From: a virus
Lineage: Duplodnaviria > Caudoviricetes
Direction: 5' to 3' (one strand)
Virus record (IMG/VR): IMGVR_UViG_3300030382_003361
Location: 1-63,560 of that record
Length of the DNA: 63,560 bases
Shown: in pieces, positions 208 through 19,227 of the stretch
Numbering within the stretch: the first letter of the stretch is position 1
Layout of the letters: each line of letters starts with the position of its first letter
Notes under the pieces: generated by a model
Databases searched by the model: none
Told to the model about the DNA's origin: nothing
The model's input: the letters and a program-made list of their open reading frames with translations, nothing else
Translations under genes and position numbers: made by a program

Positions 208-415
208 GATTATTTAATTCTTTTAATCTATACTCTTGAATTTTAGACAACTTTCCCCCTGTTTTTTTGACTTCCGAAAAAAGAACCGGGCAATTGGGAG
301 GGATAGCTATTAAATCTGGTATCCCATTTTTATTAGTCTTCATTAACTTAATAACATAATACCCTTCAGCTTCTAATTCTTTTATTCTTTTGCGCTGAAC
401 TTGCTGTTCGGTCAT
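176..415 (-). CDS. VRR-NUC family nuclease
   Basis: GIPDL...FSEVK...LSKIQEYR motifs; adjacent to helicase. Confidence 0.85.
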   Translation of the reverse strand: MTEQQVQRKRIKELEAEGYYVIKLMKTNKNGIPDLIAIPPNCPVLFSEVKKTGGKLSKIQEYRLKELNNHGVKTEVYSS

Positions 416-416
416 T

Positions 417-4057: not shown

Positions 4058-4061
4058 TTAT

Positions 4062-4245
4062 TAGTGTCGGTTCTGTGTCGATTTAGTGTCGACTTATTTT
4101 TTCTAACTTATTGATTATTAATTATTTAGTTTTTTTAGTGTCGAAATGTTGAAAATAAATAAAAAAATATAAAAAAGTAGTAACTAAATATATATTTTTT
4201 TCGTAAAACAAAAGAAGTGAAGGATAAACCGACACCACGACACTA
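4062..4245. repeat. Iteron-like locus A (GTGTCG x4 direct, CGACAC x2 inverted, AT-rich); putative origin
   Basis: Copies at 4062, 4075, 4084, 4136; inverted at 4230, 4238; immediately upstream of the primase gene. Confidence 0.75.
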
Positions 4246-4277
4246 AAAAGAAAAGGGGAAAACCCCCTTTCTTTTAG
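4243..4277. terminator. Intrinsic terminator-like hairpin, possibly bidirectional
   Basis: AAAAGAAAAGGGG-AAAA-CCCCCTTTCTTTT downstream of the SSB gene. Confidence 0.7.
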
Positions 4278-4298
4278 AGCGAACTACCACAACATGTA

Positions 4299-4589
4299 TT
4301 AAAATGGTAAGTCCCCTTGCTCTGCCTCTGCAGGTGTATCAGAGACAGCTTCTTCTTTTTTGTGATTTGGATCAGGCTTAAAAGTATCTACCGCTACATA
4401 ATGAGTTTTCCCATACTGATCGGTTTCCCTTTTTTGTTGAACCACTAACTTAATGTATTTTTTACCGTCATACTCAAACATGTGCTCTTGGGGTAAATCA
4501 GTTAAACATACACTACATGCAATTAAGTTTCCTTCAAATTTAGAAACTCCACTGCCTACATAAATTTTTTCTTCATTTGTCTTTTCCAT
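4299..4589 (-). CDS. Putative single-stranded DNA-binding protein
   Basis: Acidic tail ending DLPF; in recombination cluster. Confidence 0.65.
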   Translation of the reverse strand: MEKTNEEKIYVGSGVSKFEGNLIACSVCLTDLPQEHMFEYDGKKYIKLVVQQKRETDQYGKTHYVAVDTFKPDPNHKKEEAVSDTPAEAEQGDLPF

Positions 4590-4788
4590 AATTATTATTT
4601 AATAAAATTTGTTCCAACAATTTTTTAGTTGCGAGGTAGCATTGGGCTGCCTCTTTTTGAGACTTATGATCGGTTGGAACTTGCAACCATATTGCTCGTT
4701 TTTTCCTCCGCTTAATCCATTTAAGCGTGTAATCAAAGAATTTCACGGTGGATATAATTTTCAATATCTTCTGTCGGGTTATCTCCAT
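4573..4788 (-). CDS. Hypothetical protein overlapping both neighbours
   Basis: Fills the gap between nuclease and SSB; start uncertain. Confidence 0.5.
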   Translation of the reverse strand: MEITRQKILKIISTVKFFDYTLKWIKRRKKRAIWLQVPTDHKSQKEAAQCYLATKKLLEQILLNNNYGKDK

Positions 4789-5470
4789 AAAACTTATTAT
4801 ATACTTCTATAGCTTTCTCTACTTTATCTTTTCCATACTCTAAAAAAGTAGGGGAAGGATAAAAGATTCCTAATTCGAAAGTGAGTTTGTCTACTACATA
4901 AAAGACTAACGGTTTATCAAAAAACTGTTGATATAAATAAGCTTGACTATCATAATTGTATTTTCTTGCGCTATACTTAAAGTCTTTTATATTAGAGGTA
5001 GTTTTAAGATCTATTAACTTATCTGAACAAACTATATCTGCCTTCCCTTTCCATAACATCCCCATAACTTCATGTATTACAGGTACTTCAAACGCATTAT
5101 CGTCAGAATAAATAGCTTCATAAAACTCTAAATTATTCTTCATGCAGTGGATTGCTTTATTTATTTCCTCTCTTTCTTTTAGCAACATCATGATAGGGTT
5201 GTTATGTTTTACCACCTCTTCTTTGTAAAGTTTAGTATTTCTACTGGAGGCCTCTATACTCCAGTACTCTTTATTATCTAATTTGTCAGGCTCTAACATA
5301 GCCGCGTGAAAGTATCTCCCTAATAACATTGCTTTTGTCATTTCTTTTTCTTGCCGAAAGCTTTTAGGATCATTTAATAAAGTAATAATGTCCGAGTTAG
5401 ATAAGTATTGCTTTCCAAAATCTCCGTAGTAATGCTTATCTGATTTAAGTTTAGTTAATTCTTTTTCCAT
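4733..5470 (-). CDS. PD-(D/E)XK exonuclease VIII/DUF3799-like
   Basis: LSNSD, GRYFH..MLEP, KGKAD, IDLKTT, YDSQAYLY. Confidence 0.82.
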   Translation of the reverse strand: MEKELTKLKSDKHYYGDFGKQYLSNSDIITLLNDPKSFRQEKEMTKAMLLGRYFHAAMLEPDKLDNKEYWSIEASSRNTKLYKEEVVKHNNPIMMLLKEREEINKAIHCMKNNLEFYEAIYSDDNAFEVPVIHEVMGMLWKGKADIVCSDKLIDLKTTSNIKDFKYSARKYNYDSQAYLYQQFFDKPLVFYVVDKLTFELGIFYPSPTFLEYGKDKVEKAIEVYNKFYGDNPTEDIENYIHREIL

Positions 5471-6078
5471 TATTTTAGATTTTTAGAAAGTTCCTTTTTC
5501 ACATTAGCTTTAATTTTATACTTAACCTCTAAATTCTTTACCAATTTAGGAAGTCCTAAATCTTTATTGTCTGCAACATACTTTAATACCTTACCCCAAT
5601 TCTCATCCCCTATATTTAATTCAAAAGTTGTCATGCTTTTGGAATGAGGGGGTTTAGGGGTAGAAACAGGAGGGGTAATAGTTGAGGTTATATCTTCTCC
5701 TATCCATAAGGATAAACCTAATCCGTGCATAGCGCACGCTTTTGCAGTTGATCGCTGAATAGCAGTATTAACATCCATTGACGTTATCTTCTCTAATAAT
5801 ATAGAGTTGTTTCTATAGTCCATAACTGGTAGATAGTCAATGTGTTCTAAACCATCTAATGTTATTCCTACTTTTACATAAGCCGTTTTACCATCACTAA
5901 AAAAATTTAGTCCAGTATGTTCGGATTCATAAATTGTTCGTTGAGCTGTTGGGTGGTGTAATTTTACGAGCGCCCAAGCATTCGCCCACGACAGATAACT
6001 ATATTGTCCTTTTTTCTCAATCTTATCTTTAACCGAGATAGCAGATAGTTCCTTAAAAATGTTCTTTTTCTTTTCCAT
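5470..6078 (-). CDS. Sak/Rad52-like ssDNA annealing protein (DUF1071-like)
   Basis: YLSWANAW, LPVMD, NTAIQR..KACAMHGLGL. Confidence 0.85.
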   Translation of the reverse strand: MEKKKNIFKELSAISVKDKIEKKGQYSYLSWANAWALVKLHHPTAQRTIYESEHTGLNFFSDGKTAYVKVGITLDGLEHIDYLPVMDYRNNSILLEKITSMDVNTAIQRSTAKACAMHGLGLSLWIGEDITSTITPPVSTPKPPHSKSMTTFELNIGDENWGKVLKYVADNKDLGLPKLVKNLEVKYKIKANVKKELSKNLK

Positions 6079-6475
6079 TTGATTTGATTTTAGTTAGTTT
6101 ATTATTATATCCTGCATACTTTTTCACAATATTTTCCCTTTGCACTTTTAACTTTTGTATATGCTTGTCGTTTTTACGAGTATTAATTTCCTCTCTCATT
6201 CGTTCTTCTATCATCCCTAATTTTCTTTTACAATTTCCCATAGACAATCTTATTCCTCCTTCTCTCCATCCGTACTTAAAAAAAAATTTGTATTCTTTTG
6301 AGGTTAGTTCTCTAAAATAATCCCCTCCTCTCCCACAATTTAATAATTCTATTTGGGTAGAAAATTTTTGCAGTTTTACTCCGTAGTTTATCACGCTTAC
6401 TCCCGTCGGAAGCGCAGTGTGTATTGCGTCAGCGTCTTCACTTGCTTCGGTGTATATCTCTTCTAAACTATACAC
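6053..6475 (-). CDS. Hypothetical protein
   Basis: 140-aa ORF coupled to neighbours. Confidence 0.7.
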   Translation of the reverse strand: MYSLEEIYTEASEDADAIHTALPTGVSVINYGVKLQKFSTQIELLNCGRGGDYFRELTSKEYKFFFKYGWREGGIRLSMGNCKRKLGMIEERMREEINTRKNDKHIQKLKVQRENIVKKYAGYNNKLTKIKSNGKEKEHF

Positions 6476-6767
6476 TCTTTAATTCTTCCATTAAATCCTT
6501 AAAGTCCCGATCATTATCTATCATTTTTTTAGCATTCTTGTAGCCATAAATAATAGTAGAGTGGTAAATCTCATGTCCCTGTTCAGCCATAAAGCGTTGA
6601 ATGTATGAAATTCTAATAGGACGTTCCATACATAAATAGTAGAGCATTTGTCGTGCATCTACACATTCTCGTTTCCTTGTTTTGTCAAACATTTCATCTA
6701 AAGTAATATGAAATTGTTTGGCGATTGCTTTTGCGTATACATCAAAAGCCTTCTTTTTCATTTCCAT
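6468..6767 (-). CDS. DnaA C-terminal-like HTH DNA-binding protein
   Basis: RKRECVDARQMLYYL...HSTIIYG resembles DnaA domain IV. Confidence 0.7.
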   Translation of the reverse strand: MEMKKKAFDVYAKAIAKQFHITLDEMFDKTRKRECVDARQMLYYLCMERPIRISYIQRFMAEQGHEIYHSTIIYGYKNAKKMIDNDRDFKDLMEELKSV

Positions 6768-6790
6768 TTTTTTGTTTTTTAAGTTAGGCG

Positions 6791-6798
6791 CAAATATA
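6791..6798 (-). promoter_or_regulatory. Bacteroidota -7 box (TATATTTG) for the replication operon
   Basis: CAAATATA on + strand, 23 nt upstream of the ATG at 6767. Confidence 0.65.
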
Positions 6799-6888
6799 AT
6801 TATTTAATATAACTTTTGCAAGTTTTGTGTATTGTTTTTTTATTTTCCCTATAAATTTTTATTCACAAGATGTGCACTAATGGAGTAA

Positions 6889-7152
6889 TCAACCCTCTTT
6901 TTTACACTGCACTCTGTATAATATAAGATAACCTATTAAATCAAGCATTGTATCCTCTGTTTTATCATTGAGCCCTACTGATTTTATCCTACTTAATTTA
7001 TCGTCTATACGAGCAAGTATTCCCTCTTTTGGCGATAATTTTGAAAAGATTTGTGGGGGATCGTTAGCCGTATCTCCGTATGCTTTATTTTTTTCTAACA
7101 ATAAGGCGACTACTTCTCTGCCTACTTCTTTAATTAACTCATCTGTTTTCAT
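6889..7152 (-). CDS. DUF1599/nucleotide-modification-associated domain protein
   Basis: KNKAYGD, RIDDKLSRI, DTMLDLIGY. Confidence 0.75.
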   Translation of the reverse strand: MKTDELIKEVGREVVALLLEKNKAYGDTANDPPQIFSKLSPKEGILARIDDKLSRIKSVGLNDKTEDTMLDLIGYLILYRVQCKKEG

Positions 7153-7307
7153 TTTAATTTACTGGTTAAGGTTTTGCGTTGAGATAATAGTTGTTTAGTT
7201 TCTTCCTCATTCTCTCTTATTTTCTTTTTCTTTAACCTACCATCTATCTTGTTAATCTCATGAAAGATAGCCATCCTACTATTTGTTTTTCCCTTTCTTT
7301 TACTCAT
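7149..7307 (-). CDS. Small basic hypothetical protein, 52 aa (below track cutoff)
   Basis: MSKRKGKTNSR...TSKLK; ATGA overlap with next gene. Confidence 0.6.
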   Translation of the reverse strand: MSKRKGKTNSRMAIFHEINKIDGRLKKKKIRENEEETKQLLSQRKTLTSKLK

Positions 7308-7309
7308 AA

Positions 7310-7606
7310 TTATTTATTTTTTTCGTTCATATACTCTTTTAATCTATCGCACATTTTATTTTTCCATATCAGTTTTTCTACAATCTCCGTGTCCTCCTCT
7401 ACTTTTCCACTATACTTAAAATAGTTGTCAAGTTCTATTGTGTTCTCTCGGTAAAGTCTTTCTAAAAAATTTTGTTGTCTCACTTCTTGTATAAACTGAT
7501 CGGTTAATTCTTTTTTATCGCTTAATTGTTGTAGCCATTGTATGTATTCTTTGTTTGGCTCTTTTTTCCTTTTCTCTTTTAAGATTAAATCATCTATGTC
7601 TTTCAT
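7310..7606 (-). CDS. Hypothetical protein
   Basis: Tightly packed ORF. Confidence 0.65.
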   Translation of the reverse strand: MKDIDDLILKEKRKKEPNKEYIQWLQQLSDKKELTDQFIQEVRQQNFLERLYRENTIELDNYFKYSGKVEEDTEIVEKLIWKNKMCDRLKEYMNEKNK

Positions 7607-7623
7607 ATTTTTTTAGGTTTTAG

Positions 7624-7860
7624 TTAATCAATAAGTTCTACATTTTGTGGATCAATATAGTTAGGATGTCCTTTTTCATCTTCTAAATGAAAATACCATA
7701 TCGGTATATCCCCAGTTCCCTCTAACATTTCTTGTAGGGTAATTGTTATTTCCCCATCACAAGAGAGTTCCTCTGCTACTCTTTTTCCCCAATAAAGATA
7801 ATCATCTTTGTCGGAAAACATATAATCAACAAAGGTTGCTTTGTTTAGTTTGTATTTCAT
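7624..7860 (-). CDS. Hypothetical acidic protein
   Basis: Tightly packed ORF with A-rich leader. Confidence 0.65.
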   Translation of the reverse strand: MKYKLNKATFVDYMFSDKDDYLYWGKRVAEELSCDGEITITLQEMLEGTGDIPIWYFHLEDEKGHPNYIDPQNVELID

Positions 7861-7861
7861 T

Positions 7862-8035
7862 TTATTTAGTTTTAGTAAAATTATTTTTATTTATTATTGT
7901 TGATATTCTTCCACTTGTTTTCCACAACCTCAATTCTTTTTCTCCAAACATATTCACTACTTTATAGTAGTATTTAGGAGTTTCTAAAACTTTTGCGTTT
8001 GAACAAGTGGCGTTAAACTCTCTTTTGTTTTCCAT
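7862..8035 (-). CDS. Hypothetical protein, 57 aa (below track cutoff)
   Basis: MENKREFNATCS...NFTKTK fills the gap exactly. Confidence 0.6.
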   Translation of the reverse strand: MENKREFNATCSNAKVLETPKYYYKVVNMFGEKELRLWKTSGRISTIINKNNFTKTK

Positions 8036-8047
8036 AGTTATTTAGTT

Positions 8048-8254
8048 TTAGTTATACAATTCAATTTCAGTAAAGATAAAGTCCATATTTTCCTCCATAC
8101 TCTCCTCTAACAAACTCTCCTCACTGGTATCTCTATCCTCGTTTTGTTCTTTAATGTATTTTTTCCATCCTTTTTCGGTAAACACTCCTTCTGACTTCCT
8201 ACCATCATACATACATTCGTATTCTACCAAGTAATAAGTTTCTTTCTTTTTCAT
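8048..8254 (-). CDS. Hypothetical acidic protein
   Basis: Packed ORF. Confidence 0.65.
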   Translation of the reverse strand: MKKKETYYLVEYECMYDGRKSEGVFTEKGWKKYIKEQNEDRDTSEESLLEESMEENMDFIFTEIELYN

Positions 8255-8271
8255 TTTATTTGGTTTTTAGT

Positions 8272-8934
8272 TTATATGCTTGTTATTACTTCCTCACATA
8301 ATTGTTGAGGTATCTTACTTCGTTCATAATTTCCTTTTAATCCCTGTGTACCTGTTTGACTTCCTCGTGGAGCAGAAATATGGCACGAATCCCCATTTTT
8401 ACACATAGGTTTTGGTTTCCACCTGTAATTGTTAGTCCATATATCAGTTGGTTTCATTCTTTCATCTCCATATTGACAATAAGTTAAACTATGTCTAATA
8501 CAATCCATATCATCCCATTGTGGGGCTTTTCTCATCTTCCCTCTTGGGTTTTCTACCCACCATATAAGGTTAGGGTTAAGTTTAAGATACTCTTTAATTA
8601 TTTCCATTGTCTTACGCATAATCTCTATACCTAATTTGGCTGAATCAGTTTTAGGAGTAAAAATTTCTCCCTTTACCCAATTCCTGCCTATACAAGCAAC
8701 ACTAAATGCAGTACAGGGAGGAGAAGCCCATATAACATCAGGAATGTAAAATTCATCTAATTCTCCCACTTGCATTTCATTTAATCGGTAGTCCCAATCT
8801 AAAATATCTCCCACCCAATTTGTTTGTGGAAAATCTTGAATATCAACTGAAAAGACTTCCATTCCTTTGCTTTCAGCAACTTTTCCAATGGATCTTGAGC
8901 CACTAAATAATTCTAATACTTTATATTTTTTCAT
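8272..8934 (-). CDS. Compact C5-cytosine DNA methyltransferase
   Basis: LELFSG (motif I), ASPPC (IV), VENP (VI). Confidence 0.85.
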   Translation of the reverse strand: MKKYKVLELFSGSRSIGKVAESKGMEVFSVDIQDFPQTNWVGDILDWDYRLNEMQVGELDEFYIPDVIWASPPCTAFSVACIGRNWVKGEIFTPKTDSAKLGIEIMRKTMEIIKEYLKLNPNLIWWVENPRGKMRKAPQWDDMDCIRHSLTYCQYGDERMKPTDIWTNNYRWKPKPMCKNGDSCHISAPRGSQTGTQGLKGNYERSKIPQQLCEEVITSI

Positions 8935-8942
8935 TAGTTTAT

Positions 8943-9710
8943 TTAATTTTTAGTTAATTCAACATCTACAGAGTCAAAAGAATCAATATATTCTTTGGCT
9001 TCTTCTAATGTTTTGCCAATATATTCATATCCATAATCTAAATAATACCCTACCCCACTTTCATAATTAGGGTGTTCTTCCTTTAATTTAACAAGATACT
9101 CTCCTTTATATTCTATATCTTCACTCCATATAGGGACATCATACTCACACTCATCTATAACTTTTCCATCCTCTACATCTAATTCTCCTCCCCATCCCTG
9201 TTCCTCCTCGTAATGATAATGAAAAGATGGGAAATCCCTCATAAACATTTCTAATATATTATCTGCTATAGGACTCCACGCAGTTTCAAACCTTAAAGAT
9301 TTAAAATTTCTTCCCCCTTTGTCTAAAACAAAGGGGAATGTTTCATCATTAATTTCCAAACTACAATCTCCCCATTTTGTTCCCCAATTCGTGCAACTCC
9401 AATCATACCAGTTATTTGATCCAAATTTTTTAATAAGGTTGTCGGACATCTTTTGGGTTATACCTTTGTCTAACCATAAGTGTTCTCCTTCTTTATGTTC
9501 TTTTAATTTCTTTTTATTCTCTTTCTCTTGTTTTTCAAACTCTTTTTTAGATATGATTGTTGGTGGACATTGTGTATTATCCATCTCATTTGGGCGTGGA
9601 ATGTAATAATCACAAATTGATTTTGATTTTTCTATTTCCTTTAATATCTTTTCTTGTTTTTTTGTAAGTGGAGTAGATATTGAAATCCCACTATAAACCC
9701 AGTTTGGCAT
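8943..9710 (-). CDS. YubB/DUF1281-like ferredoxin-fold protein
   Basis: MPNW start, WYDW...WGTKW, FETAWSP. Confidence 0.75.
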   Translation of the reverse strand: MPNWVYSGISISTPLTKKQEKILKEIEKSKSICDYYIPRPNEMDNTQCPPTIISKKEFEKQEKENKKKLKEHKEGEHLWLDKGITQKMSDNLIKKFGSNNWYDWSCTNWGTKWGDCSLEINDETFPFVLDKGGRNFKSLRFETAWSPIADNILEMFMRDFPSFHYHYEEEQGWGGELDVEDGKVIDECEYDVPIWSEDIEYKGEYLVKLKEEHPNYESGVGYYLDYGYEYIGKTLEEAKEYIDSFDSVDVELTKN

Positions 9711-9823
9711 AATTTTGTTGTTTTAATTAGTTATTATTTGTTGTTTTAATTGTTAAAAATTAGTGTGTTATTTCTCGGACAATTCCATAAACATAGTTTT
9801 TTTATACTTGTCTCACTAATTTA

Positions 9824-10042
9824 TTACTCATCTCTCATATCTTCCAAATAGTTTTCTCTTTGTGTGGCTTCATATTCATAATCCTCTACTGCTTCACAAT
9901 ACTCATTGCACTCACTACATAATAGTTTGTTCTCATTAAACATTTCACTAAACATTTCTTCATAATCTGAACCACAGCAATCGCTTACCATACTACACCC
10001 CTCATCATCAGGGGACATTAATTTCCAGTTATCGTAATTCAT
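9824..10042 (-). CDS. Small acidic Zn-ribbon-like protein
   Basis: SDCCG...CSECNEYC. Confidence 0.65.
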   Translation of the reverse strand: MNYDNWKLMSPDDEGCSMVSDCCGSDYEEMFSEMFNENKLLCSECNEYCEAVEDYEYEATQRENYLEDMRDE

Positions 10043-10458
10043 AATTCTTCTATATGTGTTAGTAATTCATTTGGCGTACCCTCAAATATCTTTTTATTTT
10101 CATAGTCCATTACTTTTACTTTAATCTGCTCCTTTTCGTTCCCCTCTATTAAGTAAGTGTAATCCTCCCAAACATCTTTGGTATCAGGCGAATACAAATA
10201 TATATTCCCTACCCCATCTTTGAAATGACTTACCAGTTGAGCCGACAAACATCCCATTCCGTTTGCTATTCTTTCTTTTCTATCTACTCCATACCCATTC
10301 ACTATTGTAAAACGAGATAAAAAATTTGCTAACTCCTCTCCGTGTCCTTTTAGGTAGCCATCATATTGGCGATACATACACATTATTTTATCTTTTTTTG
10401 TCTTACCCTTTTTGTCTTTGTAGGTTTCTATAACCTTTGTTAAACTTCTTGTTCCCAT
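10039..10458 (-). CDS. Conserved-type phage hypothetical protein
   Basis: MGTRS...YRQYDGY..GHG pattern. Confidence 0.75.
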   Translation of the reverse strand: MGTRSLTKVIETYKDKKGKTKKDKIMCMYRQYDGYLKGHGEELANFLSRFTIVNGYGVDRKERIANGMGCLSAQLVSHFKDGVGNIYLYSPDTKDVWEDYTYLIEGNEKEQIKVKVMDYENKKIFEGTPNELLTHIEEL

Positions 10459-10477
10459 AGTTTCTATTTTTTAGTTA

Positions 10478-10828
10478 TTAAATTTTATGTTCTCCAAACT
10501 TATCATCTTGTGCTTCCATATCTGCTAAAAATTCTGCCTTTGTAGATGTTTTTACATCATCATAACACTCCTCAAAATCAAATTCAAGTTTATGTTCTCC
10601 ATTTACCAAAGTATAAGGTATATCGTATGTATCAACAATCATTCTTTGTAATCCCCCCAAATGATATTCAAATCTTCTCAATAATTCATCATCTTCAAAG
10701 AATAATTTTCCATTTTCAGAAACAAATCCTTTTTTAATATACTTATCAAAAATCCTACACACATCATCATCAATTTCCTCAATTATTTCCTCTATACCTA
10801 CTTCTTTATATTTTTCGTTTAATTTCAT
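10478..10828 (-). CDS. Hypothetical acidic protein
   Basis: Packed ORF. Confidence 0.65.
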   Translation of the reverse strand: MKLNEKYKEVGIEEIIEEIDDDVCRIFDKYIKKGFVSENGKLFFEDDELLRRFEYHLGGLQRMIVDTYDIPYTLVNGEHKLEFDFEECYDDVKTSTKAEFLADMEAQDDKFGEHKI

Positions 10829-11159
10829 TTTAGTTAATTTTAGTTAATTTATTTTCCTATTCTGATTGCTATAAAAGGTAGTAGAATTATTATTTCCCAT
10901 TTTTGTAGTATTATTCCTACTCCTATTAAAGTTTTATCAATTTCCCAACTGATCATTTTATCATTTTTATTAAAAGGTTAGTATATGTTCTGTTGTCTTT
11001 CCAGTTTTCTTTACTTTTATATTGGCTTAATATCTTATTAAGCAATTTTTGTTCTTCTTTATTGAGTAAGTTTTTCATTTATACAATTTTTGTAATAGTT
11101 AATAATGTGCAATAATAGTGTATAATTTTATTACAACCTAATTTTTTTTTACTTTTTTT

Positions 11160-11396
11160 TCAAAAACTTTTTATGTGCGATAGCAAATGATATAATGCTA
11201 TTGCGATTCCAGTTAGAAAAGTAGTAGCAAATATCCCAAAAATCACACCCTCTCTTAATAATTGAGGTAGTTTTTTCTTAAATTTTACCCAATTTTCTTG
11301 ATCTTCATCAGTCCAATCTAACTCATTTACAATTTTATCTGACTTTTCTTTGTCTGACAATTTACTCCATTTGTTTAATTTTTCTACTCTTTTCAT
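11160..11396 (-). CDS. Small membrane-anchored protein
   Basis: C-terminal hydrophobic helix. Confidence 0.65.
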   Translation of the reverse strand: MKRVEKLNKWSKLSDKEKSDKIVNELDWTDEDQENWVKFKKKLPQLLREGVIFGIFATTFLTGIAIALYHLLSHIKSF

Positions 11397-11397
11397 T

Positions 11398-11622
11398 TTA
11401 TTTAGGTTTAGTTATTAAATAGTTTTCTAATATCCCCCTACTCATAGTATCAAATCCCTTAAATGCCACTTTTCCATTATCATAATCCTCATAGTATTCA
11501 TCTAAATCATAAGGGAAATCTTCTTTTTCTGAACATCCACAACAAAATCCTAATTCATTTCCACTTATTCCTGCTACAAAATCTTGTTCGCACATTATAC
11601 ATATATCTTTTAATTCTTTCAT
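11398..11622 (-). CDS. Small Cys-containing hypothetical protein
   Basis: CIMC...CCGC. Confidence 0.6.
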   Translation of the reverse strand: MKELKDICIMCEQDFVAGISGNELGFCCGCSEKEDFPYDLDEYYEDYDNGKVAFKGFDTMSRGILENYLITKPK

Positions 11623-11624
11623 AG

Positions 11625-12089
11625 TTATTTAATTTTAATGTTATAGTGTTCTCCCATTGGGCTATCGTGGTGGCTTATTCTTACTTCATACTCATTCTCT
11701 TTTATCTTTTCTATGTAGTATGTTAAGTCGCATTCAGGGGTTATCTCTCTAAATATATCTTCTCCTTTTGTTAATTCAAACTCTTTATATCCAGCTCGAT
11801 TTCTCCATCCCATATTTCTCCCCTCAACATATATTGTCTTGCCTATATATTGTCTAAATTCTTCTTCTAAATCATCTCTAAAATACTCAAAATGATAATC
11901 CCCTATATAGTAGTCGTTTTCAAAATACTCTTCTATCTCCTTATCTGTTACGCTTTCAGACTCTCTTTCTTCATCACATAGTTTGCTTACTAAAAATTCT
12001 TGTTTATCTCTTTTGAAAAAATCTATTTCGTTTTGCATAAAAGCAGAAACATCATAAAAAGTTTCCCATACATAAGTTTTTGTTTTCAT
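11625..12089 (-). CDS. Hypothetical protein
   Basis: MGWRNRAG, SHHDSPMG motifs; packed ORF. Confidence 0.7.
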   Translation of the reverse strand: MKTKTYVWETFYDVSAFMQNEIDFFKRDKQEFLVSKLCDEERESESVTDKEIEEYFENDYYIGDYHFEYFRDDLEEEFRQYIGKTIYVEGRNMGWRNRAGYKEFELTKGEDIFREITPECDLTYYIEKIKENEYEVRISHHDSPMGEHYNIKIK

Positions 12090-12090
12090 T

Positions 12091-12423
12091 TTATTTAGTT
12101 TTAAGGATTCTTTCTAATTGCTCCACTACAATATCTAACATTTCGCCATCACTTAAATAATGCCCATTGGTTTCATCTTGCGAATGAATTGGATCTTTAA
12201 TCATTTTGGTTAAATTTTTAATTTCTGTTTCCATAGGTTTATTTAGTTTTAGTTTTGGTAAAACATTAGAAAGAATCAAATTATTATATTTTATCATATC
12301 TGTATTGAAATTGTCTAAATTACTTATCCCCCACTTCATTGCTTGGGTATAATTAGAAAAGTATTTTCTATCTGTCGTAAAATTCTTGTCTTTGTTAAGG
12401 TAGTCGATATAATGCTTTTTCAT
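12091..12423 (-). CDS. Hypothetical protein, probably a fusion of two small genes (internal start 12234)
   Basis: Leader motif AACTAAAACTAAATAAA precedes the internal in-frame ATG. Confidence 0.6.
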   Translation of the reverse strand: MKKHYIDYLNKDKNFTTDRKYFSNYTQAMKWGISNLDNFNTDMIKYNNLILSNVLPKLKLNKPMETEIKNLTKMIKDPIHSQDETNGHYLSDGEMLDIVVEQLERILKTK

Positions 12424-12424
12424 T

Positions 12425-12622
12425 TTATTTAGTTTTATTGAGGTTTATTACTCTGTTTCTTTCTATCCACAAACTATCTGTTTTATAGTCGTACTCATTC
12501 CATAGTTTGCTCATCTCTTTATCTATCTTAATTAACTCCTGTTGTTGTTCTGTTGTTAATTTACTCATTCCACAAGAGGAAAAAATGAGTAGGGCTACGA
12601 TTAAAATTGTTTGTGTTTTCAT
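12425..12622 (-). CDS. Small lipoprotein
   Basis: Signal peptide with lipobox FSSC. Confidence 0.7.
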   Translation of the reverse strand: MKTQTILIVALLIFSSCGMSKLTTEQQQELIKIDKEMSKLWNEYDYKTDSLWIERNRVINLNKTK

Positions 12623-12648
12623 TAGTTATTTGTTTTTAGTTATTTAAT

Positions 12649-12951
12649 TTATCTGTATTTTATGTTTGCAATTACACTTGTTCCACTATTTATCATATCA
12701 AATACCTCGTTCCAGTTCATCTTATCCATTTCCCACTCTATATCATCTTTTCTCCATTCTATTTGAAAGTTAGAGTAAGCAAAAGGAGAAGTGTTTATTC
12801 GATAATCTCCATTCCCATCTTTTTTAACTATCCATCTGTATTTATTATCACACATTACAGATACTAAATCTATTTTAATTTCTCTTGGTTTCCCCTCGAT
12901 TTTTAATATCGGTGGGTTGTCTTTTAATTCTCTATACATTTGTTTTCTCAT
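12649..12951 (-). CDS. Hypothetical protein
   Basis: Packed ORF. Confidence 0.65.
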   Translation of the reverse strand: MRKQMYRELKDNPPILKIEGKPREIKIDLVSVMCDNKYRWIVKKDGNGDYRINTSPFAYSNFQIEWRKDDIEWEMDKMNWNEVFDMINSGTSVIANIKYR

Positions 12952-12988
12952 TTTTATTTATTTTTAAGGTTATTAAATTTGTATTTTA

Positions 12989-13348
12989 TTACTCATCAAA
13001 AAATTCTTCTATTACGCTTTGTTGTCCGTAAAATTCCTCTCTGGCGTTTTGAGTTGCTAATAAAGACGCTAATAGTTCGCTATTTATATGTTTTGGCTCA
13101 TATCCATACTCTTGGGCTATCTCCATACTTTCGCACAAACTACAATCGTTTTCTTTAAGATATTCTATTGCTCTTGCATAATATATGATTTCAATATCAA
13201 AGGCGTTATGATCACTTAATTCCCCTTCTAACTCATCATAGGAATTTATATCTTCTAATTCACAAGAGTATAAGGAGTCGATAATATCAAATTCTAATTC
13301 TTTTGATAGTTGCTCAAAAAACTTTTCTTTTTGCTTAATTGTTTTCAT
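12989..13348 (-). CDS. Highly acidic hypothetical protein (possible DNA mimic)
   Basis: Strong Asp/Glu excess, early region. Confidence 0.65.
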   Translation of the reverse strand: MKTIKQKEKFFEQLSKELEFDIIDSLYSCELEDINSYDELEGELSDHNAFDIEIIYYARAIEYLKENDCSLCESMEIAQEYGYEPKHINSELLASLLATQNAREEFYGQQSVIEEFFDE

Positions 13349-13350
13349 AA

Positions 13351-13572
13351 TTATTTAGTTTTAGTTTCTTCTGTTTTTTCTATGTAGGTTATCATATCCA
13401 CTTCATTATTTTCGCTAAACGAATATTCTAAATTGTAATACTCAACTCCATCATCTCCACAATCATTACAAGTGTATTTATACCACACACACTCTCCATC
13501 TATATCCATACTACCATATTCTAAATTCTCTCCCTTACACTTTACACATTTTCCCTCTCCTATATTTTCCAT
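13351..13572 (-). CDS. Zn-ribbon protein
   Basis: CVKC...CNDC. Confidence 0.7.
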   Translation of the reverse strand: MENIGEGKCVKCKGENLEYGSMDIDGECVWYKYTCNDCGDDGVEYYNLEYSFSENNEVDMITYIEKTEETKTK

Positions 13573-13606
13573 AGTTATTTAGTTTTAATTAATCCTATAT
13601 TGTTTT

Positions 13607-14086
13607 TTACTTAAAAACTACACCAATAGATTGCAAATAGTCTTTATTCAAAATTTCTTCGCCTTTTTTAGTTTCTTCATCTACTACCTTCTGAATTGCC
13701 TGTAAGCCATCTTTATATTTTTTTAATAAAGTAGGAATAGAAACCTTATATCCACTAATATCATACCCCCAATCTCTTTTCAATACCACTCCTTTTTTAC
13801 TATCCTTTTCTAATTGTTTTTGATTAATTAATTTATTTACAATACTATCAATACAATAAAAATCTTTCTCTTTTATTTTATCGTATTCCTTTTCTAATTG
13901 TTTCATTAATTCTACATCAAAAGCAGTATATTCATATTCTCCACCATAAGCTCCATCATAAACACTACTAACTAATTTTCCTTTGTAATATAACTCACAA
14001 TTAAATCCTTGCCCATCGTGTCCTTTGTGAAACTTTAATTTTTTAATACTACATTCGTTTGTTAAACTTTGCATTGTTGTTTTCAT
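13607..14086 (-). CDS. Hypothetical protein
   Basis: GFNCELY...DGAYGG; packed ORF. Confidence 0.7.
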   Translation of the reverse strand: MKTTMQSLTNECSIKKLKFHKGHDGQGFNCELYYKGKLVSSVYDGAYGGEYEYTAFDVELMKQLEKEYDKIKEKDFYCIDSIVNKLINQKQLEKDSKKGVVLKRDWGYDISGYKVSIPTLLKKYKDGLQAIQKVVDEETKKGEEILNKDYLQSIGVVFK

Positions 14087-14105
14087 TGTTTTTGTTTTTA
14101 GTTAA

Positions 14106-14396
14106 TTATTCGAGCGTCAAAACTCTTATTGCTTCAGCATTTATTTCGTCAATTTCTTGGCTGACTTCTCTTAAATCTTTTAATGATAAGTTTGGAATGT
14201 TTTGGATTTCATCTTTATTCCACATTTCTTTTATCATATAATTGGTTTGAATTTTGTAAATCAATTGTGATTTTTCATCATATTCTTTTAAGCTGCCTTT
14301 GTCATTAGAGTCCATAAATTCTTTTCCAAACATCAACTCGAAATAATCTTTTTTAGTCATTGCTTGTTTTGTAATTGGGTGTCTGTAAGTTTTCAT
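14106..14396 (-). CDS. Hypothetical protein
   Basis: Packed ORF. Confidence 0.65.
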   Translation of the reverse strand: MKTYRHPITKQAMTKKDYFELMFGKEFMDSNDKGSLKEYDEKSQLIYKIQTNYMIKEMWNKDEIQNIPNLSLKDLREVSQEIDEINAEAIRVLTLE

Positions 14397-14578
14397 TTTG
14401 TTTTAGTTTTAGTTTTAATCATAAATAATTTATGGTTTAACAGGATATTTTCTGCTATTTGTTCATTTAATTCTTGTTCTATTGCTTCTTTTAGTTTGAT
14501 AGTTTCTTTTAAAGCGTTTTGTAACTGAACTCTTGTTGCTGTTTTAATCATTTGTTTTTGACTTTCTAATAATTTCAT
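14393..14578 (-). CDS. Small coiled-coil protein
   Basis: Heptad pattern; ATGA overlap. Confidence 0.6.
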   Translation of the reverse strand: MKLLESQKQMIKTATRVQLQNALKETIKLKEAIEQELNEQIAENILLNHKLFMIKTKTKTK

Positions 14579-14598
14579 TGTTTTAGTTTTTTAGTTAA

Positions 14599-14811
14599 TT
14601 ATTCGCATTCTAACGCTTCTTCGCTATCCTTTATAGCATAATTTATGCTGTCTTCCATTTCGATTATTTGTTTAGACAAGTTCAATATCTGCCTTAATCC
14701 GTCAATTTCGTATGTTTCCATTTCGTATGTTTCGCCACTTCTTATTGCGTCGTAACAATCTTCTAAATCTTTAGCAGTATTTTCAAATCTGCAGTAACTC
14801 ATATTTCCCAT
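14599..14811 (-). CDS. Phage hypothetical protein of MSYCRFENT type (start revised to 14811)
   Basis: ATG at 14811 has the A-rich leader; the track's upstream extension looks non-coding. Confidence 0.7.
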   Translation of the reverse strand: MGNMSYCRFENTAKDLEDCYDAIRSGETYEMETYEIDGLRQILNLSKQIIEMEDSINYAIKDSEEALECE

Positions 14812-15052
14812 AATTTTAGTGTTTTTAGTTATTAAATTTATTTGTTTGTTCCTCTGTAAAGTTTTGCTCTTTCGTGCCGTTCCTAACGGACAGAGGAGGG
14901 TGAAAAACAAGTATTAACCGAAAATATATTTTATTATTCTTTGCATTAAAGTTGTTTTTTGTTGCGTGTAATTACTTTGATAAGGGGGTATTTTATGCCC
15001 TTTTGAATTTACGCAGTAGCTAATTTGGTTGTTTTGATAATGTTTCATAGTT

Positions 15053-15322
15053 TTATTTATTAAGGTTTTTAAGTATATATTCTTTGCTGTCTATCTTCTT
15101 TTGCGTTTCTGCCTTTGTTTCTCCTAAAAATTGGTTTCTGTATTTTCCTGTTGTAACTGAATAATCCCAATAATAACTATCTAAATAGGTTTTTCCTGTC
15201 TTGTAGTTTTTTATAGCGATTACACTTCTATAACTTTGAAATGTTTCTTTGTCCTTTTCGCTAATCAAAAATTGGTTTGCGATTGGGTTTCCGTTGTTGC
15301 TTCTAAAATTTGCTACTTTCAT
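15053..15322 (-). CDS. First gene of leftward early arm, phage hypothetical
   Basis: FQSY.SVIA, WDYSVTTGKY motifs. Confidence 0.75.
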   Translation of the reverse strand: MKVANFRSNNGNPIANQFLISEKDKETFQSYRSVIAIKNYKTGKTYLDSYYWDYSVTTGKYRNQFLGETKAETQKKIDSKEYILKNLNK

Positions 15323-15654
15323 AATGTTTGTATTTGTGGTTAATAATTGTTTGCAATATGAGTATAAAATGTTTATTAAACAAATAAATACAGGTTTATT
15401 TTCAAATAAATTTCATATTTGTTGTAAGTTGCTCAATTTCAGGCGTTTAGATGGGTAAAAATATGGTGTTTTGTTTGTGGTTTGGGGTGTTCGTGGGGTT
15501 ATTAAGGGGGATTTCTCCCCCTATTACCTTTTTATTTCGTCGAATTGGGGGAAGGTTTAACGCTTTTTTGCTGTTCATTTGGGGGAATGTTTGAACGATT
15601 GAACAAGACAACAAGCAAAGATCCTGAAAAGAGCAAGACAACACAAAGGATTTA

Positions 15655-15870
15655 TTTTGTTGCGTGTGTGTGTGTTGGTTGGCTGGTTGTTGGCTGGTTG
15701 TTGGTTGGCTGGTTGTTGGCTGGTTGTTGGTTGGTTGGTTGTTCTGTTTGGTTGTGCGTGGGCGTGGGCGTGTAGCTTATGAGCCGAGCAAGTAAGCCGA
15801 GCCGAGCCGAGCAAAGCAAGACAAGACAAGCCGAGCCAGTAAGCCGAGCCACCACCCCACCACCCCCACA
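15655..15870. repeat. Bipartite microsatellite block at strand switch
   Basis: 119-nt A-free G/T tract with a 26-nt tandem duplication, then six GCCGAG copies and C-rich runs. Confidence 0.9.
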
Positions 15871-16007
15871 GAGAAAAAGGTAAAACAATCCCCAAAAAAA
15901 TTTTGAAAACATCACCCCCCTTAACAAAAAAAAGTCGTTTCCCTTTGGAGTCCCCGTTCGTATAATGGGGGGGAACCCTCAACCTCAATATATCTAAAAA
16001 AAATTAT

Positions 16008-16015
16008 TATCTTTG
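16008..16015 (+). promoter_or_regulatory. -7 box TATCTTTG, first rightward promoter
   Basis: Matches TAnnTTTG; upstream of 16033. Confidence 0.7.
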
Positions 16016-16032
16016 TAAAAAATTAAAACGTC

Positions 16033-16245
16033 ATGGCAAAGAAAACAAGTACAACCTCAGATTATGTAAACGGTCTTTATGTAAAAGACGGTAGACTAAT
16101 AAACGATAGATTCCCCTCAGAAAGTGGAATAGCAAAAGCAGCGCGTATTAAGCGAGCTGTAAAAAACGATAGAAAAATCAACCAGATTGCTGAAGGTATT
16201 GAACTGGCTGAAGATAAAAAGAACTGGCGAGAGTTAGAGTTCTAA
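16033..16245 (+). CDS. Small hypothetical protein
   Basis: Own promoter and terminator. Confidence 0.75.
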   Translation: MAKKTSTTSDYVNGLYVKDGRLINDRFPSESGIAKAARIKRAVKNDRKINQIAEGIELAEDKKNWRELEF

Positions 16246-16284
16246 AGATTTCCCATTTGTTCTGTTTTGATTAGTTGTTAAAAG

Positions 16285-16316
16285 GAGTCCTTAATATATA
16301 AAGGGCTCTTTTTTTT
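16285..16316 (+). terminator. Intrinsic terminator
   Basis: GAGTCCTT/AAGGGCTC stem plus T run. Confidence 0.7.
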
Positions 16317-16344
16317 ATTCTATATTTATATTTATACCTATTAT

Positions 16345-16524
16345 TGACACTTTAGTGTCGATTTAGTGTCGATATTAAAAATACTAATATATTAATAATC
16401 AATAAGTTATAAAGATTAGTGTCGAAGTGTCGATTTGAAGTCCAAATTTTTATAAAAAATATTTTACGCTATATAGAATATATATAAAGAGTAAAATAGA
16501 AACACTTTCTTGACACCCTGACAC
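16345..16524. repeat. Iteron-like locus B, same architecture as locus A
   Basis: AGTGTCGA-containing copies at 16353, 16364, 16417, 16426; TGACAC at 16345, 16511, 16519. Confidence 0.75.
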
Positions 16525-16545
16525 AAAAGCATATTAATTTTTTAG

Positions 16546-16553
16546 TATCTTTG
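16546..16553 (+). promoter_or_regulatory. -7 box upstream of groEL
   Basis: TATCTTTG. Confidence 0.7.
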
Positions 16554-16581
16554 CCGATATTAATTTAATTAAATTCACGAT

Positions 16582-19176: not shown

Positions 19177-19189
19177 TTAATTAAATTTG

Positions 19190-19211: not shown

Positions 19212-19227
19212 CTAAAAACAAATTAGC

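Follow-up and report, generated by a model that had tools for sequence, protein, structure and literature searches.

The two loci that precede the primase-helicase and groEL genes of an uncultured marine phage are copies of one module, and we conclude that they are probably twin replication origins of the SaPI/P4 type, with the self-loading primase-helicase as their reader and a duplication like that of oriL and oriR in phage SPP1. The window, that is, the whole stretch of DNA analyzed, is the complete 63.6-kb genome of this phage, whose host belongs to Bacteroidota and in which no lysogeny genes were found. Our reading draws on what we observed of the anatomy of the module, its conservation in relatives, the match between the A and B iteron words within a genome, and changes of word that are linked to changes in the primase-helicase.

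Anatomy of the two loci

In each copy, two or three iterons in 11-bp phase and a conserved IHF-like anchor are followed by a tandem pair of iterons, then by an AT-rich tract of ~78 bp, and finally by an inverted pair. The two copies, 12.3 kb apart, and their surroundings are as follows.

176..1649, minus strand: SNF2-type helicase and VRR-NUC/Holliday-junction-resolvase-like nuclease, downstream of the primase gene
1646..4057, minus strand: primase-helicase gene (803 aa), with an AEP/PrimPol N-terminal part, a DUF5906 SF3-type helicase core and a C-terminal winged helix
1649..1990, minus strand: variable winged-helix C-terminal domain, about the last 115 residues of the primase-helicase
4062-4245: locus A as a whole, ending 5 nt before the primase ATG (4057, minus strand)
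4064..4092, plus strand: left array of A, three iterons GTGTCG(G/A) starting at 4064, 4075 and 4086 (11-bp phase)
4104..4122, plus strand: anchor of A, the 19-mer TAACTTATTGATTATTAAT, the same word as the usual B anchor in relatives
4138..4152, plus strand: middle tandem pair of A, GTGTCGA and degenerate ATGTTGA, 8-bp period
4153..4229: AT-rich spacer of A (85% A+T), candidate DNA unwinding element
4230..4243, minus strand: right pair of A, two inverted iterons 8 bp apart (CGACAC on the plus strand, at 4230 and 4238)
4246..4271, minus strand: terminator-like hairpin (4271-4251) and T run closing the upstream minus-strand operon
4299..6078, minus strand: SSB-like 96-aa protein (DLPF C-terminal end), PD-(D/E)XK exonuclease and Sak single-strand annealing protein
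16280..16313, plus strand: terminator-like hairpin after the gene of a 70-aa protein (16033-16245)
16345-16524: locus B as a whole, ending 57 nt before the groEL ATG (16582)
16345..16372, plus strand: left array of B, inverted TGACAC at 16345 and GTGTCGA at 16355 and 16366 (11-bp phase)
16391..16409, minus strand: anchor of B, the 19-mer of A as its exact reverse complement
16419..16433, plus strand: middle tandem pair of B, GTGTCGA at 16419 and 16427, 8-bp period
16434..16510: AT-rich spacer of B (82% A+T, (TA)n core), candidate unwinding element
16511..16524, minus strand: right pair of B, two inverted iterons 8 bp apart (TGACAC on the plus strand, at 16511 and 16519)
16546..16553, plus strand: TATCTTTG, a match to TAnnTTTG, with 21 nt separating it from the preceding iteron and 28 nt from the groEL ATG
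16582..18249, plus strand: phage groEL, the first gene 3' of locus B (Pfam Cpn60_TCP1, E 3e-62; phrog_5725)

The word GTGTCGATTTAGTGTCGA starts at 4075 in A and at 16355 in B; the next TAGTGTCGA follows at 4136 in A, 52 nt after 4084, and at 16417 in B, 53 nt after 16364, and in both loci the inverted pair comes 94 nt after TAGTGTCGA. This shared spacing had been pointed out in a sequence-only reading of the genome, which also placed A before the primase gene and B before groEL, each with a terminator on the side of upstream transcription, and noticed the 19-mer with its IHF consensus and exact reverse complement in B; all of this is borne out here. Beyond that list, an extra inverted copy (TGACAC at 16345) forms the left edge of B, and a degenerate seventh-type copy (ATGTTGA, 4146-4152) gives A a middle tandem pair as in B. 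Allowing up to three mismatches, TAACTTATTGATTATTAAT has only two matches in the window, 4104-4122 (plus strand) and 16391-16409 (reverse complement), and it includes YAANNNNTTGATW, the reverse complement of the IHF consensus of E. coli.

Against 0.23 expected copies, TAGTGTCGA occurs six times in the window (0 of 100 shuffles reached six), five times within A or B and once inside a coding region, on the minus strand at 50169; GTGTCGA occurs 13 times against 2.29 expected, with seven copies in the loci. The 80-bp window with the lowest duplex stability in the genome lies in A (4116-4195); the fourth in this ranking lies in B. Overall, A and B are oriented as direct repeats, with the 19-mer inverted, and the centers of the iteron pairs are 91-93 bp (~9 helical turns) apart. 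Relative to the downstream gene, the modules are oppositely oriented, the gene-proximal part being the 11-bp array in A and the inverted pair in B. The cumulative GC skew has its minimum at ~14-16 kb, the same place as the switch in gene orientation, and thus does not discriminate.

Conservation in relatives

Searches of viral contigs returned 403 relatives by primase and 106 by groEL, and we examined 80 loci of each kind. The sequence-only reading had proposed looking for paired loci in relatives, and they exist: the same geometry is retained before the primase gene and before groEL, while the iteron word varies between genomes, and both modules could be seen by eye in 16 of 18 genomes. A strict pattern of pair, AT-rich spacer and inverted pair was called in 54/75 B regions, with a spacer of 77-85 nt in 45 of the 54, and in 26/80 A regions, with spacers of 75-84 nt (A+T 0.71-0.93). 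Within a genome the words of A and B agree, the summed self-score over 18 genomes being 277 compared with a permuted mean of 84 (sd 21, maximum 172; 0/20,000 permutations reached 277).

Of 65 relatives in which an SSB-like gene could be identified upstream of the primase, 19 lack locus A, indicating that it is dispensable, and in relatives without it the primase ATG comes directly after the terminator. The copy upstream of groEL is universal in this phage family, and A is an optional second copy. Among 60 distinct B modules, the anchor is oriented as in A in 42 and inverted in only three, the window included. The "inverted core" of the sequence-only reading is a lineage-specific flip of a conserved anchor, not a crossover core.

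The protein that tracks the iteron word

Two near-identical genome pairs that differ in the words at their modules, L069 vs L071/L072 and G006 vs G007, served as natural experiments, in comparisons covering ~21-23 kb. L069 and L071/L072 are 95-100% identical in DNA until module A begins, 55-87% across module A and the primase gene, and 84-99% (mostly 90 or more) past the primase stop; their primases are 74% identical, compared with 95-100% for six flanking replication proteins. The word in A changes from TTAACAT to TTAACAC, and that of the distant module B shifts in the same sense between terminator, promoter and groEL flanks that are ~99% identical. In module B of G006 and G007, the words are replaced within nearly identical flanks, anchor and AT-rich spacer, and primase identity is 76.4% in the last 110 residues compared with 98.2% elsewhere, 27 of the 38 differences falling at residues 692-780 in the C-terminal winged-helix region, one of the protein's most variable stretches. 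In BLASTP comparisons, no protein family other than the primase-helicase had diverged in both natural experiments while being common to them and the window.

Three dedicated DNA-binding regulators were rejected as readers of the word, among them the DnaA-C-like and wHTH proteins put forward by the sequence-only reading. The DnaA-C-like protein has a nearly invariant recognition helix and is 99-100% identical in both natural experiments, the helix of the 143-aa wHTH regulator is the same across genomes with at least six different words, and L121 and L122 have nearly identical copies of the 70-aa protein despite their different words.

How the C-terminal domain relates to the word is not straightforward: G009 and G007 share the same words although their domains are only 75.5% identical, no closer than that of G006. 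Mantel correlations with B-word similarity (r = 0.28 for identity of the C-terminal domain, 0.24 for the rest of the primase and 0.34 for groEL) are explained mostly by shared ancestry, and a column-wise association with the word in 18 primases gave no convincing column, the sole perfect one being an I/L position in the catalytic domain. In the clade of G006, G007 and G009, two different words (ATGWC.. and ATTCC) occur within one module, which may point to a second binder.

The primase-helicase matches Pfam families BT4734-like_N (E 2e-20) and PriCT_1 (E 5e-7); its DUF5906 match (E 7.6e-7) lies above the cut-off, and DUF5906 was found in 36/40 relatives. The C-terminal domain is modeled as a winged helix (pLDDT 80; 86-95 over the part encoded by 1649..1990), and its best structural matches are all winged helices. 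The origin-binding domain of phage P4 (PDB 1ka8) aligns over 72 residues with a Z score of 5.5 (rmsd 3.2); many unrelated winged helices tie with it in the range of 5-6. The helicase core was modeled too poorly to be used, and no sequence similarity to solved proteins, SaPI Reps and P4 alpha included, was detectable.

Alternative explanations

The modules might instead serve transcription control only, as operator or enhancer arrays bound by the primase-helicase C-terminal domain or another factor that loops or wraps the AT-rich DNA, with autoregulation of the primase gene at A, a groEL/late operon switch at B, and replication starting elsewhere. We regard this as unlikely, but it suits the anatomy of B too. 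A TAnnTTTG box, the Bacteroidota -7 promoter consensus, matched in the window at 16546..16553, follows the right pair in 48/48 called B modules, so that B always adjoins a promoter; in 37 of the 48 it lies 14-24 nt away, which puts the pair at the position of a -33 element or a class-II-type activator site. In the window, too, the right pair of B occupies what would be the -33 element of the groEL promoter. Terminators precede both loci, the last A iteron ends at a typical autoregulatory distance from the primase ATG, and the ~9 helical turns between pair centers would suit looping. However, A has no TAnnTTTG box on either side, and the opposite orientation of A and B to their downstream genes means that no promoter-bound logic is common to both. 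Nor is A needed for primase expression, given the relatives in which the primase ATG directly follows the terminator. Moreover, the protein that tracks the word is the primase-helicase and not one of the dedicated regulators, and the anatomy agrees with published origins. Of the options that the sequence-only reading had left side by side, two origins is the best supported, by anatomy, its conservation with genome-specific words and the primase-helicase link, operators probably hold in part for B, and recombination sites lack support.

It is highly improbable that the loci are cis sites of another kind, whether for site-specific recombination at the two ends of the 12.3-kb early region, for pac/cos-like packaging with an IHF bend, or for partition of a plasmid-prophage: the directly repeated loci with their inverted 19-mer, and the anchor's E. 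coli IHF consensus match, as in lambda attP and cosB, would suit them, but a scan of 86 ORFs showed no integrase or other site-specific recombinase, and no invertase, ParA/ParB or small-terminase-like binder near either locus, the anchor is not inverted in most B modules, relatives with B alone exist, word changes follow the primase-helicase and not a terminase or recombinase, and the A-B joints in assembled contigs of public runs, where reads joining A to B had been suggested as a check, all have short sides of ≤42 nt, none of them well supported.

Comparison with known origins

The SaPI reports (bioRxiv 10.64898/2026.10.17.759575; PMC9371898) describe origins with iterons of five or six nucleotides, arranged in opposite directions on the two sides of an AT-rich region of ~100 bp. 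A self-loading Rep reads them through the winged helix of its C-terminal domain, and PriRep5 of SaPI5 is a primase-helicase fusion. The twin origins proposed here share iterons of 5-7 nt, at least two per side, opposed around an AT-rich tract of ~80-100 bp; an initiator that is itself an SF3-type helicase (fused to a primase in SaPI5), with a C-terminal winged helix as its reader, predicted in our case; and cognate pairs of words and initiators, which are island-specific in SaPIs. Unlike SaPI origins, which lie immediately downstream of rep, the phage module is upstream of the initiator gene, is present twice, 12.3 kb apart, adds the 11-bp-phased array and conserved IHF-like anchor, and is fused to a promoter in copy B; the element is a 63.6-kb phage of Bacteroidota, and its primase-helicase lacks detectable sequence similarity to solved Reps.

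For SPP1, published work (PMC6316719; PMC3485210) describes oriL and oriR as similarly organized, with direct repeats together with an AT-rich unwinding element, ~13 kb apart on the circularized genome, one at the initiator gene and the other intergenic between transcription signals, as A and B are. Both phages encode an SSB, a 5'-3' exonuclease, a single-strand annealing protein and a junction resolvase, a set proposed in SPP1 to restart replication forks that stall where the initiator occupies the second origin (PMC6316719; PMC3485210); here, recombination and restart genes adjoin locus A (4299..6078), the SSB-like gene (4299-4589) lying in the minus-strand operon upstream of it. In contrast to our candidate reader, gp38 of SPP1 is described there as a separate origin-binding protein needing the loader gp39 and the DnaB-type helicase gp40, and oriL lies inside gene 38, whereas A is upstream of the primase-helicase gene.

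With P4 alpha, the phage shares a single multifunctional primase-helicase with a C-terminal winged-helix domain, origin-binding in P4 and the predicted reader here, although the structural match is tied with many others and comes without sequence similarity. P4 also has two separate iteron loci, ori and crr, some kilobases apart on one replicon, but its iterons are 8-mers in other arrangements. The modules further resemble pSC101, P1 incC/incA and E. coli oriC, where asymmetric initiator sites in ~11-bp phase, an IHF site between clusters and an adjacent AT-rich unwinding element are found, and in P1, two iteron clusters flank the initiator gene. Yet, the initiators of iteron plasmids and oriC (Rep and DnaA) recruit a separate DnaB helicase, unlike the one proposed here, plasmid iterons are about 19-22 bp compared with 6-9 bp, and the phage DnaA domain IV-like protein does not track the variable word.

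A proposed model of initiation

From these observations, we infer how binding, melting and firing may proceed and what the duplication may do. Short asymmetric iterons (core GTGTCG/A), which flank a 77-78 bp AT-rich unwinding element in opposite directions and are joined on one side by the 11-bp-phased extra iterons and conserved IHF-like anchor, would be read by the C-terminal winged helices of a hexameric primase-helicase that the phage itself encodes. Its rings would load on both sides of the AT-rich tract, which would melt. Because no DNA polymerase is encoded in the phage genome, the enzyme would then prime for that of the host. Since B adjoins the groEL-operon promoter, transcription and the binding of the initiator probably affect one another there. 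Locus A may have one of three roles: that of a second origin, that of an autoregulatory site, or the one proposed for SPP1 oriR, in which the bound initiator forms a fork barrier and so triggers a switch to recombination-dependent synthesis of concatemers. The layout itself, iterons with an AT-rich module, is one already known from other phages and from phage satellites.

Two colinear iteron modules in one genome

The window, an entire virus record (63,560 bp, 36% G+C) with an estimated completeness of 100% and no end repeats, carries its genes in two divergent gene modules. Genes of the − strand run from ~15.3 kb down to 1, resume at 63.4 to 61.8 kb and encode a DnaA domain IV-like protein, the annealing protein Sak, a PDDEXK exonuclease, an SSB-like protein, the 803-aa primase-helicase, an SNF2 helicase and a VRR-NUC nuclease; those of the + strand (16.0 to 61.9 kb) begin with a 70-aa gene, followed by groEL, groES and later the lysis, terminase, portal and virion genes. 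The cumulative GC skew has its minimum at ~14 to 16 kb, the same place as the gene-strand switch. Scanning of the 86 ORFs with Pfam and PHROGs found no DNA polymerase, integrase, recombinase or ParAB, and Rfam and tRNA scans of positions 1 to 20000 and of the whole window gave no match. Among named phage records searched by nucleotide sequence, an uncultured Caudoviricetes sp. genome was the only close one, and matches to cultured relatives were confined to parts of the primase. Distant cultured relatives have Flavobacterium, Polaribacter, Cellulophaga and Maribacter as hosts, and the host of the window is probably a member of the Flavobacteriia. Six marine metagenome runs from three studies, one of them perhaps the source, contain the window or part of it in contig form, with no RNA run among the listed holders.

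Genes and other features around the two loci
1646-4057, − strand: primase-helicase gene
4062-4245: locus A
4299-4589, − strand: 96-aa SSB-like protein with an acidic tail ending in DLPF, resembling the bacterial SSB C-terminal tip; no family match; conserved at 65 of 80 primase loci
6468-6767, − strand: stand-alone 99-aa DnaA domain IV homologue (Pfam Bac_DnaA_C, E 8e-10)
15400-16000: non-coding region between the divergent gene modules, with G-rich and C-rich short tandem repeats (a 26-bp unit, 2.7 copies, at 15673-15743; AGCCG runs at 15782-15849), within which public-run contigs break
15575-15988, − strand: 137-aa ORF of low complexity, probably no gene
16033-16245, + strand: 70-aa gene
16251-16275: conserved non-coding word (TTCCCATTTGTTCTGTT...) between the stop of the 70-aa gene and the terminator, without an Rfam match; retained at most groEL-upstream loci of relatives even though protein identity is 55-87%
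16345-16524: locus B
from 16582, + strand: groEL
18522-18779, + strand: groES
18745-19176, − strand: 143-aa winged-helix regulator (wHTH), Sar/MarR-like, a lone − strand gene within the + module, conserved at 75 of 80 groEL loci
28747-29307, + strand: second GroES-like protein, 187 aa (phrog_13932), so that the phage has groEL plus two co-chaperonin-like genes

Re-examination of the sequence confirmed every element that the sequence-only reading had listed for A and B. The loci lie 12.3 kb apart and are colinear on the + strand, each running from a left array through the anchor, a tandem pair and an AT-rich spacer to an inverted pair, and terminator-like hairpins precede both in the direction of transcription. 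A is followed by a − strand gene (primase) and B by a + strand gene (groEL), so the module shows opposite ends to its downstream gene at A and at B. From primase start to groEL start the distance is 12.5 kb in the window and, from contig coordinates, 10.7 to 11.6 kb in four relatives.

Elements of modules A and B in the window
4064, 4075 and 4086 (A); 16345 (inverted), 16355 and 16366 (B): left array, 11-bp phase
4104-4122 (A); 16391-16409, inverted (B): 19-mer anchor
4138 and 4146 (A); 16419 and 16427 (B): middle tandem pair of GTGTCGA, degenerate at 4146, 8-bp period
77-78 bp in A and B: AT-rich spacer, 82-85% A+T
4230 and 4238 (A); 16511 and 16519 (B): inverted tandem pair facing the middle pair
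16546-16553 (B): TAnnTTTG box, TATCTTTG

The word TAGTGTCGA occurs six times against 0.23 expected, a number reached in none of 100 shuffles, and five of the six copies fall within A or B; the sixth, at 50169, was rejected as a site, as it lies within a coding region and its companions are absent. The anchor of A has exactly one further match in the window, inverted and within B. SaPI origins consist of penta- or hexanucleotide iterons, at least two per side, opposed around an AT-rich centre of ~100 bp (bioRxiv 10.64898/2026.10.17.759575; PMC9371898), and to that extent the anatomy of A and B matches theirs: in both loci, at least two short iterons flank the centre on either side, in opposite directions. 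The least stable 80-bp window of the genome (4116-4195; −80.2, genome mean −99.8, sd 6.3) lies inside A, and the fourth least stable non-overlapping one (16319-16398; −82.5) inside B. In sequence terms, the AT-rich centre of A and B thus fits a candidate unwinding region of the SaPI type, of ~80 to 100 bp.

Module B is general in relatives and module A is optional

A viral contig collection yielded 403 relatives of the primase-helicase and 106 of groEL, and among the best 80 loci of each we found the paired loci that the sequence-only reading had proposed to look for. Nearly all relatives keep the same order upstream of groEL, that is, terminator, phased sites, anchor, tandem pair, AT-rich spacer, inverted pair and promoter box. 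A strict search pattern (pair, 55 to 130 nt, inverted pair) gave calls in 54 of 75 B regions; the spacer is 77 to 85 nt long in 45 of them and 64 to 128 nt in the remaining nine, among which are several mis-calls on other words. In the A regions this pattern gave 26 calls among 80 (spacers of 75 to 84 nt), and many additional A regions carry arrays of other periods, seen by eye, that it misses. Among the 65 primase loci with an identifiable upstream SSB-like gene, the gap measures 192 to 592 nt in 46 and 39 to 128 nt in 19; in all 19 short-gap loci arrays are absent and the primase ATG directly follows the terminator, and two of the 46 (L063 and L070, gaps of 568 and 592 nt) have coding-like sequence before the primase ATG and no array. 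B is therefore the general module, to which A is added as an optional second.

Of 60 distinct B modules, 45 have the anchor in the form TAANNNNYT[GC]AT; 42 of these copies run in groEL sense and three, the window's included, are inverted; the copy of the closest relative (L087) is degenerate and inverted. What had first been read as an inverted core shared by A and B is therefore better described as a lineage-specific flip of a conserved element. Both anchor copies match WATCAANNNNTTR, the IHF consensus of E. coli, exactly, and with a host that is probably flavobacterial this IHF/HU site is putative.

Downstream of the right iteron pair of B, a TAnnTTTG box, the −7 promoter consensus of Bacteroidota, follows in all 48 called modules, at a distance of 14 to 24 nt in 37 of them; none was found at A. 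A sigma-70-type promoter scan, whose consensus differs from that of Bacteroidota, gave nothing above shuffles. At four relatives' loci (L131, L132, L133 and L140), module B and groEL are separated by an additional small ORF that has a promoter box of its own, so that module B is not in every case directly 5′ of groEL.

The words of A and B vary in concert

In relatives, the window's word TCGACAC is replaced by TCGACAT, TTAACAT, TCAACAC, TTGACAT, TCGTCAT, TTGAGCAT and others. We compared the 6-mers repeated in A with the ones repeated in B in 18 genomes with both loci captured (module A being absent in two of them) and permuted the genomes. The summed A-B self-score was 277 against a permuted mean of 84 (sd 21, maximum 172), and none of 20,000 permutations reached it; the self-score ranked first in nine of the 18 genomes, two of these tied with a near-duplicate, and among the top four in all 18. 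The near-duplicate genomes in the set make the test conservative. That all copies co-vary at two loci more than 10 kb apart argues that one genome-encoded, sequence-specific protein reads them, and we regard A and B as almost certainly functional sites for such a protein.

Module B of three relatives (G006, G007 and G009; loci L121, L122 and L117) holds two different words, ATGWC.. and ATTCC, and in G006 the second word makes up an 11-bp array, which hints at two reading heads or two binders.

The primase-helicase as the proposed reader of the word

Two pairs of near-identical genomes with changed words served as natural experiments, each spanning ~21 to 23 kb per pair. In the first (L069 versus L071), DNA identity is 95-100% as far as the first base of module A, 55-87% across module A and the primase gene, and 84-99% (mostly at least 90%) after the primase stop; the primase is 74% identical, compared to 95-100% for six flanking replication proteins. 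In A the word TTAACAT becomes TTAACAC, and it changes likewise in module B of the same genomes, where the surrounding terminator, promoter and groEL are ~99% identical and the adjoining 70-aa gene differs. In the second (G006 versus G007, 91-95% DNA identity), the flanks, anchor and AT spacer of module B align almost perfectly and the words are replaced. The primase of this pair is 76.4% identical over its last 110 residues and 98.2% over the remainder, with 27 of its 38 differences at residues 692-780 and 19 at residues 753-780. A BLASTP cross-check left the primase-helicase as the single family that diverged in both experiments and is common to the window.

These comparisons support the iterons and the primase-helicase as a cognate pair, a picture blurred by G009, whose words are as in G007, yet whose C-terminal domain is only 75.5% identical to that of G007, and by the association tests. 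Testing alignment columns against word positions in 14 protein families gave no decisive column, the automatic word calls being noisy; Mantel and partial correlations of the B word with identity in the C-terminal domain, the rest of the primase and groEL were all significant and none discriminating. In both tests, the signal of the C-terminal domain was inseparable from shared ancestry.

The other candidate readers fare worse. The DnaA-C-like and wHTH proteins had been proposed as binders from the sequence, but their recognition sequences stay constant while the words vary, which rules them out for the variable word: the recognition helix HSTIIHGY of the former is almost invariant in 73 relatives, and the latter has the same helix-wing sequence in genomes with at least six different words. 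We speculate that the DnaA domain IV-like protein might instead read the conserved anchor, or host DnaA boxes. The 70-aa protein was rejected as well, being nearly identical in L121 and L122, where the words are completely different, as were the 140-aa, SSB-like, Sak, exonuclease, SNF2 and VRR-NUC proteins, which are 95-100% identical in the natural experiments where compared.

Domain make-up of the primase-helicase

Profile matches place an AEP (PrimPol) domain at the N terminus of the primase-helicase (Pfam BT4734-like_N, E 2e-20, and PriCT_1, E 5e-7, both above cut-offs; NCBIfam PrimPol_Db, E 2e-10, below the family cut-off) together with DUF5906 (E 7.6e-7; 30.2 bits, cut-off 27.6), which is also found in 36 of 40 relatives. 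This is the N-terminal AEP plus DUF5906 arrangement of D5, NrS-1 and P4-alpha-type proteins; DUF5906 forms the SF3/AAA+ helicase core in both NrS-1 and vaccinia D5 (PMC9611036). When folded with 40 relatives, the last 164 residues gave a mean pLDDT of 80 (86-95 in the final domain), and the best structural matches of the modelled C-terminal domain were all winged helices, with Z 6.2 for the RFX DNA-binding domain and ~5.4 for Cdc6/Orc1; the P4 origin-binding domain aligned with Z 5.5 and an rmsd of 3.2 over 72 residues. For this model, such Z values show fold, not kinship. A Foldseek search with it returned no match at E ≤ 0.001, and the weak rows were mostly winged helices. The model of residues 301-803 (mean pLDDT 58, ATPase core <50) was too poor for a structure search.

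In SaPIs, a self-loading SF3 Rep reads the iterons through its C-terminal winged helix, and the Rep of SaPI5 is fused to a primase (bioRxiv 10.64898/2026.10.17.759575; PMC9371898). Among solved-structure chains, neither phmmer with the primase-helicase (none at E ≤ 1) nor hmmsearch with a 40-sequence profile of residues 301-803 (none at E ≤ 10) found a relative. This absence of sequence kinship to SaPI Rep/PriRep lowers the chance that the protein is a SaPI Rep, not that it works like one; its make-up, a DUF5906 core and a modelled C-terminal winged helix, fits a SaPI-type initiator, for which iteron reading would be predicted.

DISCUSSION

Of the functions that the sequence-only reading had considered for A and B, two replication origins remain the best account, in view of the anatomy, the conservation and the link to the primase-helicase, and recombination sites are not supported. 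We rejected att or inversion sites for site-specific recombination: the 86 ORFs, scanned against Pfam and PHROGs, gave no cognate recombinase and no member of an integrase or invertase family, and the shared 19-mer is the conserved anchor, present also in relatives with only one module, and not a crossover core. Public-run contigs gave no trustworthy A-B joint, the sides of the listed joints being at most 42 nt; a joint from 4136 to 14832, found in two public sequencing runs (X2 and X3), probably derives from a relative. We consider it fairly probable that A and B are twin origin modules read by the primase-helicase as their initiator. A full-text search found no literature on the origins of these phages.

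The P4 ori/crr pair is one analogue of such twin modules, and phage SPP1 offers another. Its oriL and oriR have like organisation, lie ~13 kb apart and are both bound by gp38, and a fork stalled at gp38-oriR is the proposed trigger of a switch to concatemer synthesis that involves an exonuclease, an SSAP, an SSB and a junction resolvase (PMC6316719; PMC3485210). A and B likewise share words, order and spacings, from which we infer one common binding protein, and the window also encodes SSB-like, PDDEXK exonuclease, Sak and VRR-NUC/Hjc-like proteins next to A; the type of initiator differs. The SaPI comparison has limits as well. Whereas the SaPI origin lies directly downstream of rep, A immediately precedes the primase-helicase ATG and B stands in front of groEL, 12.3 kb away, and, unlike SaPIs, the window has two copies, a conserved anchor and a putative promoter fusion at B, with a proposed initiator that shows no detectable sequence relatedness to SaPI Rep/PriRep among solved structures.

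One may go further and read B as a fused origin-promoter, A as an initiator-bound fork barrier and specificity as re-set by co-substitution, although we think it rather unlikely that all three hold jointly. At B, the initiator's iteron pair would replace the −33 element of the promoter of the chaperonin/late operon, so that loading of the primase-helicase would gate late transcription, or transcription would gate loading, as a replication-coupled timing switch. The optional module A, as an initiator-bound fork barrier, would bring about an SPP1-like switch to recombination-driven concatemer synthesis. The specificity of the system would be re-set by co-substitution of a few winged-helix residues and of all iterons at both loci.

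What these data provide is a concrete, testable candidate pair of origin and initiator for uncultured marine phages of Flavobacteriia, a large family with 403 primase relatives in a single viral collection. Words that changed at two distant loci along with the C-terminal domain of the initiator form a natural record of the re-setting of origin specificity, which could guide recognition experiments on self-loading helicases, and a minimal replicon for genetic work in Bacteroidota might be built from the module and the primase-helicase gene. A functional origin-promoter fusion at B would offer a simple instance of replication coupled to late gene expression.
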